A stretch of 64,000 nt of DNA from Candidatus Buchananbacteria bacterium (GCA_041665005.1 JBAYJR010000006.1:13309-77308); one strand, 5' to 3'. Numbered from the stretch's first letter, positions 13,528 to 64,000 are shown. Numbers and translations are program-made. Notes: a model not told the origin generated them from the sequence alone.

Positions 13528-14664
13528 ATGTCGGTAAAAAAGATAATAATTGGTTTATTGGTTTTGATTGCTTTGTCGTTAATCGGTGGCTGGTTTATTT
13601 TAGTGGGCAAGTTTCCGGCCTTAATTTTTCCTAGCTCTAATAGTTGGAGTTATTGGTTAATTTTTATGACCGGCTTAACCACGGGTGGTTTAACTTGTTT
13701 AGCAATTCAGGGGGGATTATTAATTAGTAGTATCTCGGCTCAGGAACAAGTAAACAAGCAGGTTAATAATTTAGCGGGACCACGGCGTAAGTTAGTGGCA
13801 ACTACGGCTTTTGTTTTAGCTAAGTTAATTGCTTATACGGTAGTTGGTTTTTTATTAGGTAGTTTGGGTTCAGTGTTGCAACTCAATGGGACGGTGCGGG
13901 CAAGTTTGCAGATTTTAATTGGGGTTTACATGCTGGCCGTGGCCTTAAATTTGTTATCAGTTCATCCGATTTTTCGTTATGTAGTGATACCGCCACCTCG
14001 TTTTTTGTATCGCTATTTAAAAAATTATTCACAACAGGGTGCGTGGTTTACGCCGGGTTTACTTGGAGCCTTAACAATTTTTTTGCCCTGTGCCACCACG
14101 CAAGCTATGGAAGTGTTAGCGCTAGGTAGTGGTAGCGCGGTACGCGGTGCAGCAATTATGCTTTGGTTTATTTTAGGTACTATTCCGATGTTTGTAATTT
14201 TAGGTTGGCTGATTACTCGTTTAGGTGAGAAAAAACAAAAACCCTTTTTTAAATTAGCGGGGGCGATTTTAATCGTCTTAGGCTTAATGACGGTTAATAG
14301 CGGTTTAATTTTAATTGGTAGTCCGGTTACCTGGCAGAGTGTGACTCAGGTTTTTGGTAAAGCAATAATATCTAACAACACTGAAATACAAGGTGGTAAA
14401 CAAGTGGTGACTATAAACATTGATAATTCTGGCTATAATCCTGGGCAGGTTGTGGTTAAAAAGGGCGTGCCGGTTCAGTTAATTTTAAAAACTAAAGAAA
14501 CTTATTCTTGCGCTCGGTCAGTGGTGTTTTCAGCCTTTAGTAAACGAGCGATTTTATTGCCGAATGATGAGCAGGTGGTAGAGTTTACTCCGGATAAGGT
14601 GGGAGATTTTTCTTTTTCTTGTAGTATGGGGATGTATCAAGGCATAATTAGAGTGGTGGATTAG
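13528..14664 (+). CDS. Membrane protein with DsbD/CcdA-like transmembrane core (Cys in TM helices) fused to a C-terminal cupredoxin-like domain
   Basis: 378 aa. TM cysteines 'TGGLTCLAIQGG' and 'FLPCATTQAMEV'. C-terminal beta-rich domain 'VVTINIDNSGYNPGQVVVKKGVPVQLILK...FSFSCSMGMYQG' (cupredoxin-like with C/M ligand candidates). Confidence 0.5.
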   Translation: MSVKKIIIGLLVLIALSLIGGWFILVGKFPALIFPSSNSWSYWLIFMTGLTTGGLTCLAIQGGLLISSISAQEQVNKQVNNLAGPRRKLVATTAFVLAKLIAYTVVGFLLGSLGSVLQLNGTVRASLQILIGVYMLAVALNLLSVHPIFRYVVIPPPRFLYRYLKNYSQQGAWFTPGLLGALTIFLPCATTQAMEVLALGSGSAVRGAAIMLWFILGTIPMFVILGWLITRLGEKKQKPFFKLAGAILIVLGLMTVNSGLILIGSPVTWQSVTQVFGKAIISNNTEIQGGKQVVTINIDNSGYNPGQVVVKKGVPVQLILKTKETYSCARSVVFSAFSKRAILLPNDEQVVEFTPDKVGDFSFSCSMGMYQGIIRVVD

Positions 14665-14673
14665 TTTTTTTCT

Positions 14674-14788
14674 TTGTCATTCCTGCGAAAGCAGGAATCC
14701 AGATTAATTTAGGTTGTTACTGTTACTCCCGAAGTGATTACTTCTCAGCAGAATATCCTCCTTAATTCTCTTGCCCTTTTGTAACCAA
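14674..14788 (+). repeat. About 115-nt intergenic repeat (copy 1), starting with a 'ttgtcattcc-N-ggaatc' hairpin
   Basis: About 88% identical over about 95 nt to 50417-50555: '...ggaatccagattaatttaggttgttactgttactcccgaagtgattacttctcagcagaatatcctccttaattctcttgcccttttgtaaccaa'. Confidence 0.7.
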
Positions 14789-14789
14789 T

Positions 14790-14996
14790 ATGAAAAAAAT
14801 AATTTTGAAAATAAAAACCATGCATTGTACAGGCTGTGCTTTGTTAATTGATGATGAATTACAAGCTCTGCCTGGAGTAATTAGCGCTAAAACCAGTTAT
14901 GCCAAAAGCCAAAGCGTAGTGGAATTTGAGGATGAGGTAAAAAATAGTGATTTAGTGGCCGCGGTCAAACGCGCCGGCTATGAAGTAGAAAACTAA
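14790..14996 (+). CDS. copZ: Copper chaperone CopZ (HMA domain)
   Basis: 68 aa. 'MHCTGCALLIDDEL' MxCxxC metal-binding motif. Confidence 0.85.
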   Translation: MKKIILKIKTMHCTGCALLIDDELQALPGVISAKTSYAKSQSVVEFEDEVKNSDLVAAVKRAGYEVEN

Positions 14997-15008
14997 TCAT
15001 TAATATTT

Positions 15009-17243
15009 ATGAATAAAAAAATTACTTTAGATATTAGTGGGATGCATTGTGCTTCTTGTGCGGTGCTAATTGAAAAAGCCTTAAAGCGAGTGTCAGGCGT
15101 AGTAGCAAGTAATGTCAATTATGCTTCGGAAAAGGCGCAGGTTGAAGCCGGACCAGAGGTTAAGTATGATGATTTAATTAAGGCGGTTAATGGTGTCGGC
15201 TATAAAGTTTTAGAAAACGCATTAACCGAACGTCCAGAAATGAACATGCCTGTGGGGCATGATCATGTAGCGATGTTGCGAGCTGAAGAGTTACAAGTAT
15301 TAAAACGTAAATTAATTTTTAGTATTATTTTAGCCATACCCATCGTAGTCTTGAGTATGGGCAGGTTAATTCCGGGTTGGCCTGAAATGTCATTAACTGT
15401 TTTGAATTCGGTTTTGTTAGTATTAACTACGCCAATTTTGTTTTGGGCCGGTGGGCAATTTTTTATTAGTGCCGTTAAATCCGCTCGTCACCTCCAGGCT
15501 AATATGGATACTTTGGTAGCGATGGGTACGGGAGTGGCTTATTTATATTCTTTAATTGCTACGCTGTGGCCCCAAATTTTTGTGATTGCGGGTAAAATGC
15601 CAGAGGTTTATTTTGATACCACGGCGGTAATCATTGCCTTAATTTTATTAGGTAAGTATTTAGAAAACCGGGCCAAGGGAAAAACCAATGAGGCAGTAAA
15701 GGAATTGATGGGCTTACAAGTTAAAATTGCACACGTTAAACGTCAGGGTCAGATAATTGATTTACCGATTGAGCAGGTAATTGTCGGTGATTTAATTTTA
15801 GTTAAACCGGGAGAAAAAATTCCCGTTGATGGTTTGATTGTTGAAGGATTATCGGCTGTTGATGAAGCAATGATTACGGGTGAGAGTTTGCCGATTGATA
15901 AAAAGGTGGGTGACATGGTGACTGGGGCGACGCTTAATATAATGGGAATGCTTATTTTTAGAGCGACGCAGGTGGGTTCGGGCACGGTTTTGGCGCAGAT
16001 AATTAAATTGGTACAAGAAGCGCAAGGTTCAAAAGCACCAATTCAACGTTTGGCTGATAAAATTTCAGGAATTTTTGTGCCGATGGTTATAATAATAGCA
16101 ATGGTTTCTTTTGTAACTTGGTTAGTTTTGGGTCCTGCGCCGGTTTTAACTTATGCTTTAATGGCTGCGGTAACCGTATTAATTATTGCTTGTCCTTGCG
16201 CCATGGGTCTGGCTACACCGACGGCGATTATGGTGGGTACTGGTCGAGGGGCCAAGCAGGGTATTTTATTTAAAGATGCTACTAGTTTGGAAAATTTACA
16301 AAAAGTAGCAGTGGTTGTTTTTGATAAAACTGGCACCCTAACCAAAGGTGAATTACAAGTGGTTAATTATAGTAATGATGAAGTTTTAAAAATTGCCGCC
16401 AGTCTAGAACAATATTCGGAACATCCTTTGGCTATGGCAGTGGTCACTAAGGCCAAAGACCAAAAAATTAATTTGTTAGCCGCGGCCGATTTTTTGGCCG
16501 TGGTGGGCTATGGTGTTAAAGCGAAAATTAAAAATCAAGAGTATATTTTAGGTAATCAAGCGTTATTAACCGAGAATAATATTAGTTTAACGGAAGTGGA
16601 ACAAAGTACAATTAAACAGTTAGAAGCTCAGGGACAAACCGTTTTATTACTAGCTGAGATTAGTCGCCGGCAATATTTAGGTTGTTTAGCTTTAGCTGAT
16701 ACGCTTAAATCAGAAGCGCGCGCGGCGGTGGCAAGTTTATTGCGTTTGAATATTATACCGATTATGTTGACTGGCGATAACGAAGCCACGGCGCAAACTA
16801 TTGCCGAGCAAGTGGGGATTAAAGAGTGGCGAGCAAAAGTAAAACCTGAGGATAAATTACGGATAGTGAGAGAATTAAAAAGTAAATATCAGACGGTGGC
16901 CATGGTGGGCGACGGTATTAATGATGCCCCAGCTTTAACCGAAGCCACGGTGGGCCTGGCGATGAGCACGGGGACAGATATTGCTATGGCGGCGGCTAGT
17001 GTTACAATTTTGCACGGCGACCTTAATAAAGTGGTGGAAGCAATAATACTTTCGCGCAAGACCATGAAAATAATCAAGGGTAATTTATTTTGGGCTTTTA
17101 TTTATAATATTTTAGGTTTACCGGTGGCCGCTGGAGTCCTTTATCCTTTAGGGGGAATAATGTTAAGTCCAATGTTGGCGGCCGGTGCCATGGCTTTTAG
17201 TTCGGTGTTTGTGGTTAGTAATTCTTTGCGTTTACGGCGTTAA
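15009..17243 (+). CDS. copA: Copper-translocating P1B-type ATPase CopA
   Basis: 744 aa. N-terminal HMA 'GMHCASCAV', 'CPC' in TM6 ('[11 protein letters not shown]'), 'DKTGTLT', 'GDGINDAP', 'TGES'. Confidence 0.92.
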
Positions 17244-30691: not shown

Positions 30692-30784
30692 TGGAGCGGG
30701 AGAAAGGAGTCGAACCTTCGGCTTTTTGGTCGTCTAATTGTTTAGACAGAGAACCAAATACTCTACCCACTGAGTTACCCCCGC
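30692..30784 (-). tRNA. tRNA-like gene (Gly-like acceptor/discriminator U73, encoded CCA) with a 24-nt anticodon-loop region containing a 17-nt hairpin insertion
   Basis: Reverse complement: gcggggg-ta-actc-agtgggta-gagt-a-tttgg-[ttctctgtctaaacaattagacga]-ccaaa-aagcc-gaagg-ttcgact-ccttt-ctcccgc-t-cca. All arms canonical except the loop. If an insert is spliced out, one reading gives loop ttCTCga. Confidence 0.6.
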
Positions 30785-56265: not shown

Positions 56266-56958
56266 ATGCCAAAAATCAAAGTTATCATTTTAGGTCTTGG
56301 TTGGTTAATTTTAGCCTGGCCGGTTTTGGCGGCGATGGATTCAGCTAATTATACTATTTACGCTGATGTGCTTTCTACTGGGGGCAATTATGGCACTTCA
56401 GACACTAATTATAAATTATGGGATACTTTAGGTGAGGCGATTATTAGCACCGCTTCTAGTACTAGCTATGGGGTTAAGCAGGGTTTTCAGTTGATGAATC
56501 GCGACAATAATGTAATTACCTTGAGTCTTTCGGCGGCTAGTTTAAATTTTGGCACGCTTTCGGCCAGTGAAACTAAAACTGCTAGTCATACTTTAACTGT
56601 TAGTACTAATGCGGCGAATGGCTATACTATTAGTTATGCGGGGTCTACTTTAAGTTTTGATACTTATACAATTAGTCCGATTGGTGCTAGTCCGGTAGTG
56701 CCGGCGACCCCTGGTAGTATCCAACAATTTGGTTTAAATGTAATCAATCCCACTGGTTCGGCGCCAATTGGTAGTACGGTGGCTAATTATGGTGATGCAA
56801 GTAAATACGCTTTTTCTAGCGGTGACGTGGTGGCACAAGCTAATAGTGCGGTTAATCAAACTGTTTATACGGTTGGTTATGTGGCCAATATTCAAGCCGG
56901 CATGCAGGCGGGTACCTACACTACTAATTTGGTATTTACCGCCACGGGAAATTTTTAA
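56266..56958 (+). CDS. Secreted Ser/Thr-rich hypothetical protein
   Basis: Signal peptide 'MPKIKVIILGLGWLILAWPVLAA', low-complexity S/T/N-rich body. Confidence 0.5.
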   Translation: MPKIKVIILGLGWLILAWPVLAAMDSANYTIYADVLSTGGNYGTSDTNYKLWDTLGEAIISTASSTSYGVKQGFQLMNRDNNVITLSLSAASLNFGTLSASETKTASHTLTVSTNAANGYTISYAGSTLSFDTYTISPIGASPVVPATPGSIQQFGLNVINPTGSAPIGSTVANYGDASKYAFSSGDVVAQANSAVNQTVYTVGYVANIQAGMQAGTYTTNLVFTATGNF

Positions 56959-56961
56959 AAT

Positions 56962-57882
56962 TTGATTATGAAAAAAAGGATATTTTTGATGGTAACTCTA
57001 GCCGTAATGATTTTTTTGCCAACTAAAGTTTGGGGGATTACTCTGGCTCCGGCCACTTTGGAGTTAAAAGTAGCGGCTGGTCAAAGCCAGGAGTTTAAAA
57101 TTAAGTTGTTTAATGAAGAGGATAAAACCGTATTTTTACTAGCGAGTTTAAAAAAATTTGTTAGCCAGGGTACAGAGGGGTCGGCTAAAATTTTAGTCAC
57201 CACGGCGCAAGATGAATATTTAAATTGGTTTAATTTGCCGGGCCGCTATACTAAGTTAGCGCCTGGTGAAATGCAAGAAATTACTTTAAAAATTAGTATT
57301 CCGGCCAAAGCCGCACCAGCCGAATATTTTCCGGTGCTGGCCTGGCAAACTTTGACCGGAACAAATTCCGGGGATAATTTAGCAGTTTCGTCTGAGGTTG
57401 GCACCTTAATTTTTTTACAAATAACAGGCCCTAAGGAAGAAAAGTTGAGTCTACAAAATTTTTCTTTACCTACTAAGCAACAAATACTCTGGTCTTGGCC
57501 TAAAAAGTTTTTAGTGCAAGTTCAAAATGAAGGCAATATTCATCTAGTACCACAAGGGAATATTAAACTGGCTGGTTATTGGCAGAAAACCCCATTAATT
57601 TTAGCGGTTAATGAAGGTCAAGGAAAAATTTTGCCCAACAGTCAACGAGTCTATGAGGTTTTTTTGCCTCAGCGTAGTAGTTCAATGCTGGCTAGCTTAA
57701 AAAAGTTTTTAGTAATTGGTAAATATCAAGCCACTTTAAATTTAACTTATGGCGAAACGAATAAAAGTTTGACTCAGATGATTAATTTTTGGGTAATTTC
57801 TTGGCCAGCGGTCAGCTTGTTTGGGGTGTTACTAATTATTTTAGGTTATAATCTAATTAAATTTAATGCCAAAAGACAATAA
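56962..57882 (+). CDS. Secreted protein with C-terminal membrane anchor
   Basis: Signal peptide, beta-rich body, C-terminal TM 'ISWPAVSLFGVLLIILGYNLI' + KR. Confidence 0.5.
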   Translation: MIMKKRIFLMVTLAVMIFLPTKVWGITLAPATLELKVAAGQSQEFKIKLFNEEDKTVFLLASLKKFVSQGTEGSAKILVTTAQDEYLNWFNLPGRYTKLAPGEMQEITLKISIPAKAAPAEYFPVLAWQTLTGTNSGDNLAVSSEVGTLIFLQITGPKEEKLSLQNFSLPTKQQILWSWPKKFLVQVQNEGNIHLVPQGNIKLAGYWQKTPLILAVNEGQGKILPNSQRVYEVFLPQRSSSMLASLKKFLVIGKYQATLNLTYGETNKSLTQMINFWVISWPAVSLFGVLLIILGYNLIKFNAKRQ

Positions 57883-60800
57883 AATATTTTTTAGTTTAGG
57901 TTTGGTAGTAGCCGGTTTATTGGTGGCTAATTTTTTTGGTGCGGCTAGTTATTTGATTGCCGCTAATGCTAATGTCACAATTTCTGGCACGATTGAAGGT
58001 GTAACCCCGCCGCCAGATTGTTTTTTGGCCGGTACTAAAATTTTAATGACTGACGGTAGTCAAAAAGATATTGAGCAGATTAAAGTCGGGGAAAAAGTCT
58101 TGAGTAAAAATTTAACTTACGGACAATTAACTAGTAATACAGTTGAACAAACTTACACTCACCAGGATATTCGGCGCATTATTGTCATAAACCAAAAATT
58201 ATTCGTGACTGGTTGGCACCCTTTATATTTAAATGGTAGTTGGCAATTGGCCCGACTGGCAAATTTGGGTGATGAATTACAAACTGTTGATGGTGCGGTA
58301 GAAAAAATTAATTCGTTGCAAGAAATTACGGGTCCCTTTACGGTTTATAATTTAGCAGTGGCCCAAGATAATAATTATTTTGCGGAAAATATTTTAGTCC
58401 ATAATAAAGGGGGCGGCTGTACTCCAGTGGCTATTACTTGTGGCGAATGTGTTTATAGCAATAACCAGTGGACTAAAACTTGTTCAGATGGTTGTAGTAG
58501 TAACTCATTTTCTTGTAGTGCTCCAGCTCCGGTGGCAGCTTTTGTGGTGCAAGATCCGGCGACGGGTGTTGAAATTTTTCAAGGTGATGGCCCTTTAGTT
58601 TTAAATTATTTAGATCGTTCTACCAATAATCCTACGCAATGGAAATGGGAATTTTTAGATGGTAGTCGTAGCAATCATTTAATTTTTACTAGTAATCAGC
58701 AAAATTTACTCGCTTATGTTTTGTATAATACTTCGACTGCCCAAAAAACTTATACGGTTAAGTTAACAGTTAATAGTAGTTCTTGGGCGACTACACAAGT
58801 TAAGGTTTTTCCCGATGCTACCACGGTTTTTAATATAAGTAGTGACAAATTAAATAATCAAGTGGAACAATTTGATCCGGCAGATCCTAGCGACACTAAT
58901 GCGCTTGTGCAATTTAAAATGAATTATGTTTCTGGTGGGTTGCCACAGACTTATTTGTGGGATTTCGGTGATGGTCGAACTAGTACCGAAGGTTCAATTG
59001 TTACCCACTATTATTCTAATCTGGGTAGCTACTGCGTTACTTTAAAAACTTGTAATGATAAGGGCTGTACCTTTAATACTAACAAGCAATGTAGTGGCAA
59101 TAATACCGGTATTAAAATGTCGGTGGTTAAAACCATTAATTGTTCAGCCTTTTTTGATGCTACAGTAGTCGATCCTGATCCGTTGACTTTAACTTTTAAC
59201 GCTAAAAAGTCCGTGCAATTTAATAATGGTTCAGCCGGCAAAGGAATTTTAAGTTATTTATGGACTTTTACTAATCGGCAAACTGGGCAAGTTTTTACGC
59301 GCACTGACAAAGAGCCATTAATTGAGTTTGATAATCAAACAGCTGTGGCTCATAATTATAACGTTTCTTTGGTTACTACTTGCTCTGGTTATACAAAAAA
59401 TAGTACTCAAGCTCGGACGAATTATATTAATGTTAAGCCGCGGCCACCGGAAGCAGATTTTAATTGTTATATTAATGATCAAAATTCTATAACTTGTAGT
59501 GGCCTTTCGCCGTTAGTGGTGAATTTAAGAGATGCAACAACCGAAAGCACACCTAGTTCTTGGGCTTGGTCTTTTGTAGTTAATCGTACCGGACAACGAG
59601 CACCTGTTTGTGGAAGTAAAACAGTAGCTAATCCTAGCTGTACTTTTACCGGTAATCGCGGTGATATTTGGAATGCAACTTTATTAGTAAATAATGCCGC
59701 TGGTTTGCCCAGCAGTAAAATGAAGCAAATTAAAATTGGTAATCCCGAAGCACCAATACCTTGGTTTACTGTGGACAAGGCCATAGCTTATAGTGGCGAA
59801 ACTATTACTTTTACTGATAAGTCGCAAAACATTACTAACGTCCCAATTACGGGTTGGGATTGGAATTTCGATGGCTTTAATCATTCTACACAAGTTAGTG
59901 GCACTTTAACGCATGTTTACGTCGTAGATAAGCAAACCACTTTTACTCCCACCCTAACCTTAACTGATAAATTTGGTCAGAAAAATACTTTTACTATCCC
60001 CGTTGTTATTTATCCTTCAGCTCCGCCGGTGGCGCAGTTTAGTTGTCAGCCAACTAGTCCGCCGGCTTGGCCGGCCCCTAAGGCAGTTAATTTAATTGAT
60101 CAATCTACTAATAAGCCAAATTATTGGCAATGGACCATTACTTTACCGGATGGCCAAAAGGCAATTTATTACGAACAGAATCCCACGGTTACTTTAGCGC
60201 CGACGGCCGAACATTCTTATGAAGTAGCCTTAAAAGTTTGCAATAAAATTTGTTCAGATTTTGTTAATCCTCATTGTAATTGTACCGAAAGAAGCCAAGC
60301 GGGTTGTATTACAGTGGCCCCTTTGCCAGTTGTGGCCTTAAGGTTGACGCCAAATTTAATTAATCAGGGTCAGAGTGCTAGTTTGGCTTGGCAAAGTTTA
60401 AATGCCCGGGAGATTAATTTAGATCAAGGTTTAGGACAAGTTTCAACTAACGGTAGTAATTCTAATGGTAGTGTGCAAGTTAGTCCGACCAAAACCACTA
60501 CTTACACGGCTACGGCTACTAATGAAGTGGGCAGTAGTCAGGCCATGGCCACTTTAAGTGTTTCTTCTTCGGCTATGGTGACTGTTAGTATTACTGCTAC
60601 TCCAACTTTAATTAAAGCCGGGCAAACTTCCTTGTTAACTTGGAATTCACAAAATGCCCAAACTTTAAATATTGAAGGGATCGGTCCGGTTAGTGCTTCG
60701 GGTAGTGCAGAAGTTTCGCCTACCAAGACTACCACTTACACCATAACCGGCCAAGGAGAAAATGGTTTGTCCGCTAGTGCTAGTATTACGGTGGCGGTAG

Positions 60801-62344
60801 AACCAGTTTATCCACCGATTACTCCCGACCCACCAGAGTTGCCGCCAACTATTCCACCTTTTATTGAAAATTTATTACCGCCAATTGTTAATGAAGTAAT
60901 TAAAGATATTATTAACAATCCGGTGGTGGTAATGGTGCGAAAGTTTATCAGTCAGCCGGAAGTGAAACGAGTAACCAGACAGACTGTCGCGCCAATTATT
61001 GTTGCCACTTCGGCGATAGCCGTTAGTACTTCTTTTGGTTTGTTGGATTTATTATCGTTGTTGCGTTTTATTTTTACCGAACCATTTTATTTATTATTTC
61101 GTCGTCGTCGGCAAGGTTGGGGGACGGTCTACAACACTTTTACTAAACAGCCAATTGATTTGGCGGTAGTGCGTTTGTATAGCACTAAAGATAATAAATT
61201 AGTGACCAGTCGAGTGACCAATACGCGAGGGCAGTATTTAATTTTAATAGAGCCAGGAGAATATTATTTGGAAGTAACTAAACAGGATTTTGTTTTTCCG
61301 TCTAATGTTTTGTTTGGCAAAACACAAGATGAAAAATTTACTGATCTTTATACTGGCGGTAAAATTATCATCACGGCCGAACAGCCAAATATTGCCTTAA
61401 ATATTCCGCTGGATTCGCATTTGCCAGAATTATCCGACAATCAAATTATTAGACATTATCATCGACAGGCTTTACGTTTAGTATTACTATCTTTAGGGCC
61501 AATTGCCGCTGTAGTTTCTTTTGTGATTGCGCCTAGTTATTTAATGTTTAGTTTAATTTTAGTGCATTTATTCTTTTATTGGTTATTCCGCAAGCTATCT
61601 TATCGCGGGGTGCCCAAGAGTTGGGGTTCGGTGTTTGATAAGCTAAAATCCTCACCGGTGGCAACAGCGGTAACGAGAATTTATGAACCAACTTATCATC
61701 GTTTGTTAGAAGTTCAGGTAACGGATCGCCAAGGACGCTATGGCTTTTTAGCGGATAATAATATTTATTATGTTACGGCGCAAAAGGCCGGCTACAAAAC
61801 GGCGCAGTCAACCTTAGTAGATTTGCGACAAAAGGATTCTTCGGTAGTTAAGTTGGATTTACCATTAGAATTAGAAAGTGGTGGGGCTAATTTGGAAATT
61901 GAAAAACAAAAATCTATTTTGGGTTTAGCTACGGCCAAAGAATTAAACCGAGTAGAAGAAAAGGTTCACGCGGTTAAGGGGCAAGTGGATCGAGTACAGT
62001 TACGGGTTGGTAAAACGGAATTAGGTTTGGCCGGAGCCAAAAAACAATTAACCAAACAACATAAAATTTTGGAAGAGAGATTAGCGGAGCAAGAAAAAAG
62101 TATTAAAGCGGTAGAAACTAAGCCAGTTACCAAAACTATTGAAGAAAAAGTTGTGGTGACAAAGCCCGAAGCCTTACCAGAAGTAATTTTGTTGCCACCA
62201 GCCAGCCAGCCAGTTGAGTTACCAAAAAATTTGGTAGAAAATGAACCAGCAACCGAGGAAAATAATTTGTCTGGGGATAAGTCAGTCGGGGAGGAGTCAT
62301 CAGATGACCCGACCAAACAACCGCCGGAGGGTTTAGTTGGCTAA
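57866..62344 (+). CDS. Giant (1492-aa) surface protein: signal peptide, Hint (bacterial intein-like) domain, PKD/Ig-like repeats, Pro-rich linker, TM segments, two carboxypeptidase-regulatory-like domains, coiled-coil
   Basis: Hint blocks 'CFLAGTKILMTDGS', 'TGWHPL', terminal 'ILVHN' followed by Lys. Two tandem ~90-aa repeats ('...SVQVSPTKTTTYTATATNEVG' and '...AEVSPTKTTTYTITGQGENG'). 'EPVYPPITPDPPELPPTIPP'. 'VVRLYSTKDNKLVTSRVTNTRGQYLILIEPGEYYLEV'. Confidence 0.8.
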   Translation: MPKDNKIFFSLGLVVAGLLVANFFGAASYLIAANANVTISGTIEGVTPPPDCFLAGTKILMTDGSQKDIEQIKVGEKVLSKNLTYGQLTSNTVEQTYTHQDIRRIIVINQKLFVTGWHPLYLNGSWQLARLANLGDELQTVDGAVEKINSLQEITGPFTVYNLAVAQDNNYFAENILVHNKGGGCTPVAITCGECVYSNNQWTKTCSDGCSSNSFSCSAPAPVAAFVVQDPATGVEIFQGDGPLVLNYLDRSTNNPTQWKWEFLDGSRSNHLIFTSNQQNLLAYVLYNTSTAQKTYTVKLTVNSSSWATTQVKVFPDATTVFNISSDKLNNQVEQFDPADPSDTNALVQFKMNYVSGGLPQTYLWDFGDGRTSTEGSIVTHYYSNLGSYCVTLKTCNDKGCTFNTNKQCSGNNTGIKMSVVKTINCSAFFDATVVDPDPLTLTFNAKKSVQFNNGSAGKGILSYLWTFTNRQTGQVFTRTDKEPLIEFDNQTAVAHNYNVSLVTTCSGYTKNSTQARTNYINVKPRPPEADFNCYINDQNSITCSGLSPLVVNLRDATTESTPSSWAWSFVVNRTGQRAPVCGSKTVANPSCTFTGNRGDIWNATLLVNNAAGLPSSKMKQIKIGNPEAPIPWFTVDKAIAYSGETITFTDKSQNITNVPITGWDWNFDGFNHSTQVSGTLTHVYVVDKQTTFTPTLTLTDKFGQKNTFTIPVVIYPSAPPVAQFSCQPTSPPAWPAPKAVNLIDQSTNKPNYWQWTITLPDGQKAIYYEQNPTVTLAPTAEHSYEVALKVCNKICSDFVNPHCNCTERSQAGCITVAPLPVVALRLTPNLINQGQSASLAWQSLNAREINLDQGLGQVSTNGSNSNGSVQVSPTKTTTYTATATNEVGSSQAMATLSVSSSAMVTVSITATPTLIKAGQTSLLTWNSQNAQTLNIEGIGPVSASGSAEVSPTKTTTYTITGQGENGLSASASITVAVEPVYPPITPDPPELPPTIPPFIENLLPPIVNEVIKDIINNPVVVMVRKFISQPEVKRVTRQTVAPIIVATSAIAVSTSFGLLDLLSLLRFIFTEPFYLLFRRRRQGWGTVYNTFTKQPIDLAVVRLYSTKDNKLVTSRVTNTRGQYLILIEPGEYYLEVTKQDFVFPSNVLFGKTQDEKFTDLYTGGKIIITAEQPNIALNIPLDSHLPELSDNQIIRHYHRQALRLVLLSLGPIAAVVSFVIAPSYLMFSLILVHLFFYWLFRKLSYRGVPKSWGSVFDKLKSSPVATAVTRIYEPTYHRLLEVQVTDRQGRYGFLADNNIYYVTAQKAGYKTAQSTLVDLRQKDSSVVKLDLPLELESGGANLEIEKQKSILGLATAKELNRVEEKVHAVKGQVDRVQLRVGKTELGLAGAKKQLTKQHKILEERLAEQEKSIKAVETKPVTKTIEEKVVVTKPEALPEVILLPPASQPVELPKNLVENEPATEENNLSGDKSVGEESSDDPTKQPPEGLVG

Positions 62345-62560: not shown

Positions 62561-64000
62561 ATGAACGCTTCACAGTTCAGAATTAAAAAGTTATACACAA
62601 CTGCCATGATACTTGGTCTATTTTTGGTCGTGATTTTATTATCACAATTTTTTGATAATTCAAAGTTTGCTCAAGCGGCGGTGGGAGTGCCAAGGCTATT
62701 AAATTATCAAGGCAAAGTAGCTAATTCGGCCGGCACCGCTGTTACTGACGGCAATTATAATTTTAGATTTAGACTTTATACAGTTAGTTCTGGCGGTACG
62801 GCCGTTTGGACTGAACGTTGGACTTCAACTTCTACGGCAGTTACGCTTAATCACGGAATTTTCTCGGTCAATTTAGGAAATATCGCCACTTTAGCTAATG
62901 TGGATTTTAGTCAGGACACTTATTATTTGCAAGTAGACTTTGATTCGGATAGTAATGGCAGTTGGGATGAATCCTTTAGTCCGCGTAAACAAATAACTTC
63001 TGCCGTGTATGCCTTTAATGCCAATATTGTGACTGGTACAGCCACTACCACCGAAGCGACTTCCACCAAAGCGTATATTGCTAATGTCTTAAAAGTTGCC
63101 ACTACTACCGAAGCGGCTGGTCAAAAATTGATAGTCGGTGGTGATTCTTATTTCGGTGGTAATATTTATGTTACCGGTAATGCTACGACTAGCATTTTGC
63201 GAGTAAATTCGTTTAACTTAAACGGTGACGATATTACAGACATTACCGGTTCAGGGCTTTCAATTATTGACGGCGCTTTAACAGCTACCGGCTTTGCCCC
63301 GACGGGTTTTAGTGGCGCTTGGCAAACCTTAACCGGGAATATTTTAACGCCTACTTCTACCGGTGCCGGAATTTTAATAAATGCCGCTTCGTCAACAATT
63401 ACGCAGTTAAATGTTAATAGTGTTACTAGTACTAGCCGTTTAGTAGTTGGTTCAATCACTCCTACTACTAATGATCCTTTGTGGGTGGGGGGCAGTGCTT
63501 ATGTTTCCAGTAATCTTGGTATAGGCACAACGCCAACTGTTGGTTTAGATTTAGCAGCCGATAAATCAATTCGTCTAACGGGTGGAACTAGTTTTCCAAT
63601 CGCTCCCGCTGAAGGTCAAATATTTTTTAGAACTGATACTTATCAGCTTTATGTTTATGCAAACGGTAAATGGCAAGCTGATCGTTCTACGGCCACCAAA
63701 ATTGTGGCGGCTAATAATTCTGTAAACAAAGAAAAGGCGGATTATGTGGTTCCTGACGGGTCAACTTCTGCTCAAAATACTATTAATACTGCTTTGGCCG
63801 CGCTACCTATTGGTGGCGGCATAGTTTATTTGTCAGAAGGCACCTACGTTGTTGATGGTAGTGTTAATATTAATGCCTCCAGTACTACTTTAATGGGCAC
63901 AGGCGCTGGTACGGTTATTAAACTTAAAGATAATTTTAATAGTGCAATTAAAATTATTAAAGCTACGGGACTACTTAGCAAGGTTTTAATTAGAGATTTA
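62561..64000 (+). CDS. Partial (5' portion) large secreted protein, probable right-handed beta-helix/pectin-lyase-like fold; runs off the window end
   Basis: Open frame from ATG 62561 to the window end. Signal-anchor 'TAMILGLFLVVILL', T/S/N/G-rich beta repeats, 'DGSTSAQNTINTALAALPIGGGIVYLSEGTYVVDGSVNIN'. Confidence 0.6.
   Translation, partial: MNASQFRIKKLYTTAMILGLFLVVILLSQFFDNSKFAQAAVGVPRLLNYQGKVANSAGTAVTDGNYNFRFRLYTVSSGGTAVWTERWTSTSTAVTLNHGIFSVNLGNIATLANVDFSQDTYYLQVDFDSDSNGSWDESFSPRKQITSAVYAFNANIVTGTATTTEATSTKAYIANVLKVATTTEAAGQKLIVGGDSYFGGNIYVTGNATTSILRVNSFNLNGDDITDITGSGLSIIDGALTATGFAPTGFSGAWQTLTGNILTPTSTGAGILINAASSTITQLNVNSVTSTSRLVVGSITPTTNDPLWVGGSAYVSSNLGIGTTPTVGLDLAADKSIRLTGGTSFPIAPAEGQIFFRTDTYQLYVYANGKWQADRSTATKIVAANNSVNKEKADYVVPDGSTSAQNTINTALAALPIGGGIVYLSEGTYVVDGSVNINASSTTLMGTGAGTVIKLKDNFNSAIKIIKATGLLSKVLIRDL

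Follow-up and report, generated by a model that had tools for sequence, protein, structure and literature searches.

A bacterial intein-like Hint domain behind a candidate donor strand in the anchor protein of a probable reduced Pam-type cassette of Candidatus Buchananbacteria

Bacteria of the candidate phyla radiation (CPR, or Patescibacteria) rely on contact with host cells, and their attachment machinery is barely known; likewise, it has not been clear what bacterial intein-like (BIL) domains do ever since these were described in 2003. In this context, we analysed a stretch of 64,000 nucleotides from a Candidatus Buchananbacteria bacterium (GCA_041665005.1, JBAYJR010000006.1:13309-77308; hereafter the window, with positions counted from its first letter), where a giant anchor or stalk protein of 1492 amino acids (gene 3; 57866-62344, + strand) carries a Hint domain of the BIL type directly behind a candidate donor strand, within what is probably a reduced Pam-type cassette. 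The Hint domain type was already known, and it is this setting that is new.

The Pam pilus of Ca. Mycosynbacter amalyticus, described in 2026, is a CPR-specific system in which truncated Ig-like C-terminal pilin domains are joined by donor-strand exchange; PamC/D are PapD-like chaperones with a C-terminal transmembrane (TM) helix, and the RbmA-like anchor PamR has an extra N-terminal strand that is predicted to enter the last pilin (10.64898/2026.03.03.709456). A tail-fibre-like gene has been reported beside pam operons, the prevalence of which is highest in Saccharimonadia and Microgenomatia, and the words Hint and intein occur nowhere in that preprint (10.64898/2026.03.03.709456). Regarding BIL domains, those of type A are recognised by an N-terminal Cys, a T-x-x-H in block B, a C-terminal His-Asn pair and no Cys/Ser/Thr at position +1 (PMC4031507); their chemistry comprises a thioester, Asn cyclisation and aminolysis, with cleavage products prevailing in vitro (PMC4031507, PMC7664689).

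A Hint domain of the type A bacterial intein-like class

The open reading frame of gene 3 is present exactly as an earlier reading, made from the DNA alone (hereafter the sequence-only reading), had placed it, and its product is listed under the name 'PKD domain-containing protein [Candidatus Buchananbacteria bacterium]' (P0010, 100% identity). The Hint domain spans 58019-58405 (+ strand), from C52 (CFLAGTKILMTDGS) to N180 (ILVHN), with TGWHPL inside and K181 next, and comprises 129 residues, slightly fewer than the 135 or so formerly estimated from these same motifs. Both curated profile thresholds and fold place it in the HINT superfamily, in agreement with the module that had been proposed to follow the signal peptide; the failure of profile searches over residues 52-190 or so, named beforehand as refuting, did not occur. 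Indeed, the cut-offs of three Pfam profiles were passed, namely PT-HINT (43.6 bits, cut-off 27.7), Hom_end_hint (34.6 bits, cut-off 32.1) and Vint (32 bits, cut-off 27), and phmmer against PDB sequences retrieved 8W20, through its Hint (E 4.5e-9), and the C. thermocellum BIL 2LWY (E 2.7e-7), both aligned end to end with the module. An AlphaFold2 (AF2) model of the Hint region, built from ten sequences, reached a predicted local distance difference test (pLDDT) score above 90 in the core and superposes on BILs. The top Foldseek matches in the PDB were the Tetrahymena BUBL BIL2 structures 6Y75/6TMM (E 2.5e-11, template-modelling score about 0.8), and the same score against 2LWY was 0.87, with a root-mean-square deviation of 1.9 Å; mini-inteins and Hedgehog HhC ranked below the BILs, over an E range of 1e-11 to 1e-6.

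The catalytic blocks correspond to C52 (block A), T115-G-W-H118 (block B), VYNL...NNYFA (block F) and H179-N180 (block G), with K181 at +1. Since Cys1, T-x-x-H and His-Asn are kept and a +1 nucleophile (Cys/Ser/Thr) is absent, the module was classified as a type A BIL with complete catalytic motifs. This assignment is well supported by sequence and agrees with the bacterial intein-like type suggested before, autoprocessing itself being predicted. An assembly or fusion artefact was rejected, as the gene lies on both a 78.5-kb NCBI contig and a 40-kb ENA contig, and seven other genomes have a Hint in the anchor.

In an exhaustive HMMER search, which covered 1.84 billion cluster representatives, the Hint module proved to belong to a very large family: 13,669 proteins matched at E ≤ 1e-3, and 2,381 reached E ≤ 1e-10. 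Many of them hold 2-13 tandem copies, and the positions are N-terminal, internal or C-terminal. A word-indexed search with the N-terminal 252 residues of gene 3 returned nine matches, the query protein itself not being among them. The top 150 proteins of the exhaustive search contain 288 modules, 271 of which begin with Cys and 204 of which have Lys at +1, whereas 48 begin within 90 residues of the N-terminus, typically directly behind a signal peptide. The junction consensus of the subfamily, '...VHN-K-G-(G)-(G)-C', is identical in the window protein. Therefore, neither the +1 Lys nor the position behind a signal peptide is unusual for the window Hint, and the Lys, to which the sequence-only reading had drawn attention, turned out to be common in its subfamily.

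Two layouts seen among these relatives deserve mention. In proteins P0140-P0287 (e.g., P0162, P0214, P0247, and P0140), a signal peptide and 'ARGGGG' are followed by tandem Hints split by just 'KG(G)(G)', up to a maximum of 13 matched stretches in one protein, so that these arrays have almost no exteins. P0002 and P0003, of about 190 residues, combine a leader of about 50 residues with a C-terminal Hint that ends in '...FAENILVHN' plus 2-14 residues, a Hedgehog-like layout with a peptide-sized cargo.

The conserved Lys also bears on the idea that the thioester at Asp51 is taken by an amine of another molecule, such as a Lys of the PamT-like cap pilin discussed below, the cell wall or a surface protein of the host cell, giving a covalent (iso)peptide. 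The top structural match, BUBL BIL2, joins its N-extein to the lysine epsilon-amines of various substrates in an ATP-free manner (PMC8616854), and strong conservation of the +1 Lys in the subfamily would fit; however, cis-aminolysis explains that conservation equally well, and the structural similarity to BIL2 is not above that to the C. thermocellum BIL. We regard trans-ligation as very unlikely.

PT-HINT being the best Pfam match, and the best PDB sequence match (8W20) being a large protein whose Hint lies close to the C-terminus, a polymorphic toxin that releases a C-terminal toxin for interbacterial antagonism was also considered. The architecture largely refutes it and it was rejected, because the Hint lies at the N-terminal end and profile searches of gene 3 revealed no toxin domain behind it. 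Furthermore, the roughly 1300 residues that follow end in a membrane module found in more than 100 loci, mostly Hint-less, and the next gene encodes a beta-helix fibre, not a small immunity protein. A pretoxin Hint is barely conceivable here.

Retention and loss of the Hint domain among related anchors

A full-length orthologue of gene 3 was not found in a collection of 5.8 billion clusters, which returned generic PKD matches only, and metagenome contigs of the Joint Genome Institute (JGI), scanned with residues 35-375, contained no close relative. The C-terminal 450 residues or so are common to more than 100 Patescibacteria loci. With the C-terminal module as probe, 111 relatives of the membrane module (60986-61870, + strand; residues 1041-1335, delimited by profile matches, hydropathy and comparison with relatives) were found in GTDB genomes, and 80 of these loci were retrieved to compare their context. 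Between the window protein and those of loci L003 and L004, the membrane module shows 41% identity, with 97 invariant columns. Where titles are informative, the lineages are Buchanan-, Magasanik-, Falkow- and Uhrbacteria and Paceibacter, other titles being different or uninformative. Many GTDB records with the cassette (L007, L012, L014, L016, L017, and others) are titled 'uncultured Gammaproteobacteria bacterium' (third-party annotation metagenome-assembled genomes), probably as placeholders or mislabels. Across the window and loci L003-L085, the membrane module displays an R/K cluster and 'WGxVYN', and no single Pfam or NCBIfam family spans the whole of it; the tails of relatives resemble that of gene 3, with ..IFG or ..LVG as a frequent ending. 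A gene order of pilin-like, chaperone-like, and large anchor holds for most of the loci whose context is complete, and the ectodomains of the anchors are diverse, including PKD, fn3, Cys-rich DUF4215/myxo repeats, and others.

Among the 80 retrieved loci, the Hint is present in just eight anchors (window, L004, L009, L012, L013, L015, L017, and L024). Although these Hints are just 39-66% identical in pairwise comparison, Cys1, T-x-x-H, VYNL...NYFA and His-Asn are found in each of the eight, with an invariant 'KG' directly after. The N-terminal alignment revealed that Hint plus KG is a clean indel at one site, just upstream of a Cys module, C[ITV]P..C..C..GC, and in L003, L010, L011, L008 and L025, which have no Hint, the sequence runs uninterrupted through this site (e.g., 'CQVVG-PSCIPVATTCSYGAC' in L003, 'CVCGAPA[Hint]KGECIPGDQVCSYGEC' in L013 and 'GVTPPPD[Hint]KGGGCTPVAITCGEC' in the window). 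In gene 3, the +1 Lys, a 'KGGG' spacer and this small conserved Cys module (CTPVAITCGEC...TK.CSDGCSS) lie at 58406-58531 (+ strand; residues 181-222), the Cys module being homologous to its counterpart in the Hint-less relatives.

In a tree of the C-terminal modules, the seven other Hint-positive proteins belong to one clade, interleaved with Hint-less members. Moreover, the identities of Hint and C-terminal module rise and fall together (Spearman 0.67, p 8.5e-4, when the window is left out; 0.85 with it), the window protein being 39-41% identical to the other Hint-positive anchors in the Hint and 40-45% in the C-terminal module. The simplest reading of this co-divergence of Hint and host protein is that the Hint has resided there for a long time and was cleanly lost on several occasions, rather than having moved recently. 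A recent gain through a mobile element was rejected, as the divergence follows the host protein and the GC content of the Hint is not foreign (0.349 vs. 0.393, standard deviation 0.026; difference not significant). One result runs counter to a single history: the tree placed the window protein outside the Hint-positive clade, and its Hint may either descend from the same ancestor as the other seven or have been acquired independently at this site.

The presence or absence of the Hint at a fixed site is intein-like, and the window copy has, in block F, an Asn that replaces the His of most relatives (DNNYFA vs. DHNYFA), a change that could slow Asn cyclisation and thus weighs against an active domain. 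Nevertheless, either a canonical mobile intein or a degenerate Hint serving as a structural spacer is distinctly unlikely. A canonical class 1 intein was rejected because the 129-residue module has no homing-endonuclease domain and its host is a variable, fast-evolving surface protein, not a conserved enzyme; furthermore, Lys and not Cys/Ser/Thr stands at +1, and both the co-divergence and the GC content given above argue against mobility. A dead domain was likewise rejected, being difficult to reconcile with Cys1, T-x-x-H and His-Asn having been kept despite just about 40% identity.

The candidate donor strand and the Pam-type cassette

Gene 3 begins with a signal peptide or signal anchor (57866-57970, + strand; residues 1-35, ending in AANA; hydropathy 2.19 over residues 5-33), for which we infer AxA-type cleavage, followed by an N-extein of 16 residues, NVTISGTIEGVTPPPD, composed of a strand and a proline linker (57971-58018, + strand; residues 36-51). 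The mature N-terminus of many anchors has such an alternating-hydrophobic strand and then a Pro/Gly-rich linker (NVTISGTIEGVTPPP in the window; strands VNINATVSG, IDITATVP, VNVNAHV, VTVEATVP and VNISATVP in other anchors). The pattern [VIL]x[VILF]x[AGS]x[VI], sought within 30 residues of the hydrophobic core, was found in 17/66 related anchors, against about 1% expected, and usually as the sole occurrence in the protein. The pilins of all those loci are single-domain and PamT-like, and none of the 28 single-domain pilins of related loci has the pattern. The PamR-like protein of L005 shows the same pattern after its membrane anchor ('GTINLSGQVKGKPPEIP'), and two two-domain Pam pilins have it in the inter-domain linker ('AINLTATVD-ETLTF' and 'QVTVTADVP-SILSF'), which is the donated strand according to cryo-electron microscopy (cryo-EM) work (10.64898/2026.03.03.709456). 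In a single-chain model, residues 36-51 are disordered (pLDDT < 50), as expected of a strand that folds only when docked. In view of these features, residues 36-46 are put forward as a donor strand that would complete a PamT-like pilin.

Some points weigh against this role. The regular expression was derived from the same sequences on which it was counted, and 9/11 two-domain pilins have no strand motif in the linker, so that the linkers, with the motif in only 2/11, lend thin support. The proposed function draws on the conservation of the motif and on what the preprint proposes from AlphaFold models. Moreover, the N-terminal hydrophobic segment of gene 3, with 25 residues, is long for a signal peptide; if it were not cleaved, the strand would stay tethered to the membrane and the model would change.

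Further observations concern the same N-terminal region. An N-x-S/T sequon (NVT, NAT, or NVS) is frequent in the strand motif (57971-57990 in the window; also L003, L004, L009, L010, L012, L013, and L015) and could be a glycosylation site, yet it is absent in IDITATV-type variants. In the anchors L023:1368-4205, L026:7915-10572, L034:8384-11113 and L061:8225-11272, a pilin-type N-terminal motif ('SSTNYQIE.DSINFGGG...') replaces the strand, as if pilin and anchor had become fused naturally. A further set of anchors (L042, L044, L045, L053, L066, L073, and L084) start with an 'S.S..RH..S..ANH.F.F.TPTGVD' domain and lie beside two-domain pilins.

A further question is whether the Hint is mainly an autoprotease that cuts the tip (donor strand plus PamT-like cap) off the anchored stalk or, with an uncleaved signal anchor, severs the link between N-terminal tether and stalk, providing a shed adhesin or a detachment mechanism. 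Such release would agree with the prevalence of cleavage products of type A BILs in vitro (PMC4031507, PMC7664689), with an N-extein that in the window consists of the strand alone, and with the extreme C-terminal placement of the module's closest relatives (e.g., '...ILVHNK*'), where only N-terminal scission can matter. However, strand and stalk are permanently joined in Hint-less orthologues, at least three clean Hint losses in one clade are easier if the mature product is the Hint-less form, and the strand motif is still conserved in Hint-positive anchors. We consider release as the main role possible, although doubtful.

The genes upstream of the anchor suggest what the strand would bind. 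Gene 1 (56266-56958, + strand; 230 residues) encodes a single-domain PamT-like pilin, which has a signal peptide, ends in the truncated Ig-like domain of Pam pilins and is without a donor strand of its own; it scored 96.9 bits against NCBIfam CPR_Pam_pilin_C (NF058581, 'Pam pilus system pilin subunit'; cut-off 55) and had no Pfam match at E ≤ 1, hence no detected WxL domain. Gene 2 (56962-57882, + strand; 306 residues) encodes a membrane-tethered, pilus chaperone-like protein, in which a signal peptide is followed by two beta-sandwich domains and, at the C-terminal end, a TM helix (residues 281-305; AF2 pLDDT 81.5). Its best Foldseek matches were E. faecium WxLIP structures, including the WxLIP-WxL complex (9I1Y/9I25; E 2e-12), followed by the chaperone-usher chaperones CfaA, YadV, CsuC, Caf1M, DraB and FimC, and the chaperone of L005 is a homologue (E 3.5e-23). 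By modelled fold and by this homology, gene 2 fits the PapD-like chaperones with a C-terminal TM helix (PamC/D class). A gap of 3 nucleotides separates genes 1 and 2, and genes 2 and 3 overlap by 17 nucleotides.

For reference, L005 (L005:3411-11754, a Logan contig) is a bona fide Pam operon, with PamT (288.8 bits, cut-off 240), a two-domain pilin, a chaperone, a PamR-like protein (207 bits) and a 1427-residue Peptidase_S74 fibre. The gene order of the window parallels that of L005, and therefore the giant protein occupies the position of PamR. In this context, the locus is probably, according to sequences and models, a reduced Pam-type cassette composed of a PamT-like pilin, a tethered chaperone of PapD/WxLIP fold and an anchor. 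The fibre gene, gene 4, follows gene 3 after a gap of 216 nucleotides and is therefore probably a separate transcript; it encodes a secreted, fibre-like parallel beta-helix protein that is partial in the window (62561-64000, + strand), and its longer copy (L002:14696-18121) matched Beta_helix (67.6 bits), NosD (57.3 bits) and, weakly, the fibre N-terminus Bdello_MAT_N. The N-termini of genes 1, 2 and 4, which flank gene 3, are all signal-peptide-like, consistent with the secreted proteins that the sequence-only reading had assembled into one four-gene locus; as a unit, that locus is better divided into a reduced Pam-type cassette and a fibre gene with, probably, its own transcript.

The cassette reading also has evidence against it. 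Gene 1 aligned over its full length with the PamT equivalog (NF058579) but scored 107.6 bits against a cut-off of 240, for which reason it is called PamT-like and not an equivalog; the giant protein has no PamR (NF058578) match at E ≤ 1, and no second pilin paralogue (a two-domain major pilin of the PamA/PamB/PamE type) occurs in the 64-kb window. Consequently, the appendage may not be a filament. Related loci of the window clade likewise have a single-domain pilin only.

Behind the Cys module, gene 3 continues with a variable ectodomain of PKD/Ig-like domains and scattered Cys pairs (58532-60310, + strand; residues 223-815), where PKD_4 matched three stretches (1e-20 overall; segments of 48.7 and 27.8 bits, and weaker ones of 18-20 bits). 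Next come two tandem Ig-like repeats of about 87 residues (60311-60835, + strand; residues 816-902 and 903-990; 46% identity, E 3e-10) and a proline-rich linker (60800-60889, + strand; residues 979-1008; 12 Pro in 30 residues). The membrane module is ordered as a hydrophobic stretch (1041-1075), RRRR, beta-sandwich 1, a TM hairpin (1201-1241) and beta-sandwich 2; the first sandwich matched CarboxypepD_reg with 33.1 bits (cut-off 32.3) and the second with 25.2, under the cut-off. Charge bias would put both sandwiches on the cytoplasmic side, unusual for CarboxypepD_reg-like folds, and does not settle the topology. Finally, a coiled-coil-like region and an acidic low-complexity tail (61883-62341, + strand; residues 1340-1492) gave only sub-threshold matches to coiled-coil families.

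Much of the architecture outlined by the sequence-only reading could thus be recovered, including the PKD domains, the tandem repeats of about 90 residues and the TM segments. The linker is better termed proline-rich than polyproline, just one of the two carboxypeptidase-regulatory-like domains passed the cut-off, and the coiled coil stayed below the thresholds. A self-processing, possibly variable surface protein is a reasonable description, because the ectodomain family is highly variable, and the catalytic motifs are intact; by its sequence, however, the gene 3 product is a polytopic membrane protein and not simply a secreted giant adhesin, with a C-terminal module that is widely shared.

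As to the surroundings, the window cassette is flanked by ychF and a DUF6938 gene, and it is without the two conserved membrane proteins of about 180 residues that flank the cassettes of the Hint-positive clade (e.g., L003:8587-9144 and 14366-14929; L004:8624-9151 and 14765-15334). Elsewhere in the window, ARAGORN called a tRNA-Glu(CTC) at 30692-30784 (- strand) of 93 nucleotides, some 17-20 over the usual length, which could reflect an intron or insertion or a miscall.

Proposed processing and comparison with known systems

From these data we propose a model that, as a whole (Pam-type cassette, donor-strand-docked cap and self-processing Hint behind the strand), we hold with moderate confidence; that the Hint actively autoprocesses, judging from its homologues, is somewhat more secure. 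Gene 1 would provide the cap, a PamT-like pilin whose Ig fold is incomplete, and gene 3 would be a membrane-embedded anchor expanded into a stalk of about 1000 residues. After Sec export, the N-terminal peptide of the anchor, NVTISGTIEGV, would donate a strand, completing the cap pilin and holding it at the tip of the stalk. Directly behind this strand, the Hint (C52-N180) would fold extracellularly and process itself in a single turnover, with an N-to-S acyl shift forming a thioester at Asp51-Cys52 and cyclisation of Asn180 cleaving the Asn180-Lys181 bond. Three outcomes are envisaged: the freed amine of Lys181 may attack the thioester, so that the Hint leaves and strand and stalk are rejoined, equalling the Hint-less orthologues; water may attack it, shedding the strand with any bound cap; or a foreign amine may attack it, as in BUBL BIL2, giving Lys isopeptides (PMC8616854).

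By analogy with homologues, the domain most likely excises itself outside the cell, after which its flanks would be rejoined or the docking strand would be lost together with the pilin cap. Provided that the Hint is active, predominant splicing comes close to an even chance, predominant cleavage is somewhat short of that, and trans-ligation has a small chance. Rejoining is favoured as the product that matters because of the clean, repeated Hint losses and the strand kept in Hint-positive proteins; shedding is favoured by the behaviour of BILs in vitro and by the fact that the relatives nearest in sequence have the module at their C-terminus.

The reduced cassette, with its cap pilin, tethered chaperone and giant anchor, is probably widespread in Buchanan-, Magasanik-, Falkow- and Uhrbacteria-type lineages and has not been described previously, and a subset of these cassettes would have long retained an intact Hint at the junction of docking strand and stalk. 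It is unlikely that the Hint is a working part of the appendage, with the thioester linking the strand to a lysine of the cap or the host surface, or with the tip released as a programmed switch. If true, this would mean an ATP- and sortase-independent covalent joint or adhesion outside the cell, or tip shedding within an attach/detach cycle of an episymbiont, and both the invariant +1 Lys and the placement right behind the strand would be functional adaptations. If the Hint merely splices out, this would be a neat but commonplace case of a variable surface protein with a BIL. A fragment of about 300 residues and a partner of 230 residues make a small experimental system for donor-strand docking in CPR bacteria and for an extracellular role of BILs.

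Regarding the Hint, a close counterpart in fold is C. thermocellum BIL4 (2LWY), with which the window module shares the end-to-end alignment, Cys1, T-x-x-H, His-Asn and the absence of a +1 nucleophile, as well as its mini size and a secreted or variable bacterial host protein. On the other hand, identity is about 29%, and the window Hint belongs to the large 'HN-KG' subfamily with Lys at +1 and is preceded by just 16 residues in the mature form of its host, a polytopic membrane protein from a CPR bacterium. BUBL BIL2 of Tetrahymena thermophila uses an N-terminal thioester to pass its N-extein to an amine, but is eukaryotic and cytoplasmic with ubiquitin-like flanks, whereas nothing in the window protein is ubiquitin-like and isopeptide chemistry is merely possible. 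As for the pretoxin Hint (PF07591) and Hedgehog HhC, PT-HINT is the best profile and several close relatives have a C-terminal Hint; HhC has its Hint at the C-terminal end and performs N-terminal scission only, and the window differs from both in its N-terminal Hint, with the bulk of the protein downstream, and in having neither a toxin-immunity pair nor a sterol-recognition region.

Among surface systems, the WxL/WxLIP clusters of Firmicutes (PMC10599100; 9I1Y, 9I25) share with gene 2 two Ig-like domains and a C-terminal TM helix, the distant sequence relatives of gene 2 carry PF06030 and PF11797, and WxLIP binds its partner through strand insertion. Nevertheless, no WxL domain was detected in gene 1, gene 2 is about 15% identical to WxLIP, and only the WxLIP-like fold of gene 2 is shared. 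We know of no Hint in WxL clusters.

Compared with Pam, the window lacks the two-domain major pilins PamA/B/E, its pilin is under the PamT cut-off, and its host belongs to a Buchananbacteria-type lineage, outside the classes where Pam is most prevalent. The RbmA-like PamR has about 300 residues, in contrast to an anchor of 1492 residues with PKD/Ig repeats and a multi-pass membrane module, and what the two have in common is limited to their place in the gene order, the strand pattern at the N-terminus and their anchoring in the membrane. In brief, the window locus resembles Pam in its CPR-restricted occurrence, in a chaperone with a C-terminal TM helix, in an adjacent fibre gene, and in an anchor gene placed behind that of the chaperone and encoding a protein with a strand at the N-terminus and a membrane anchor at the C-terminus.

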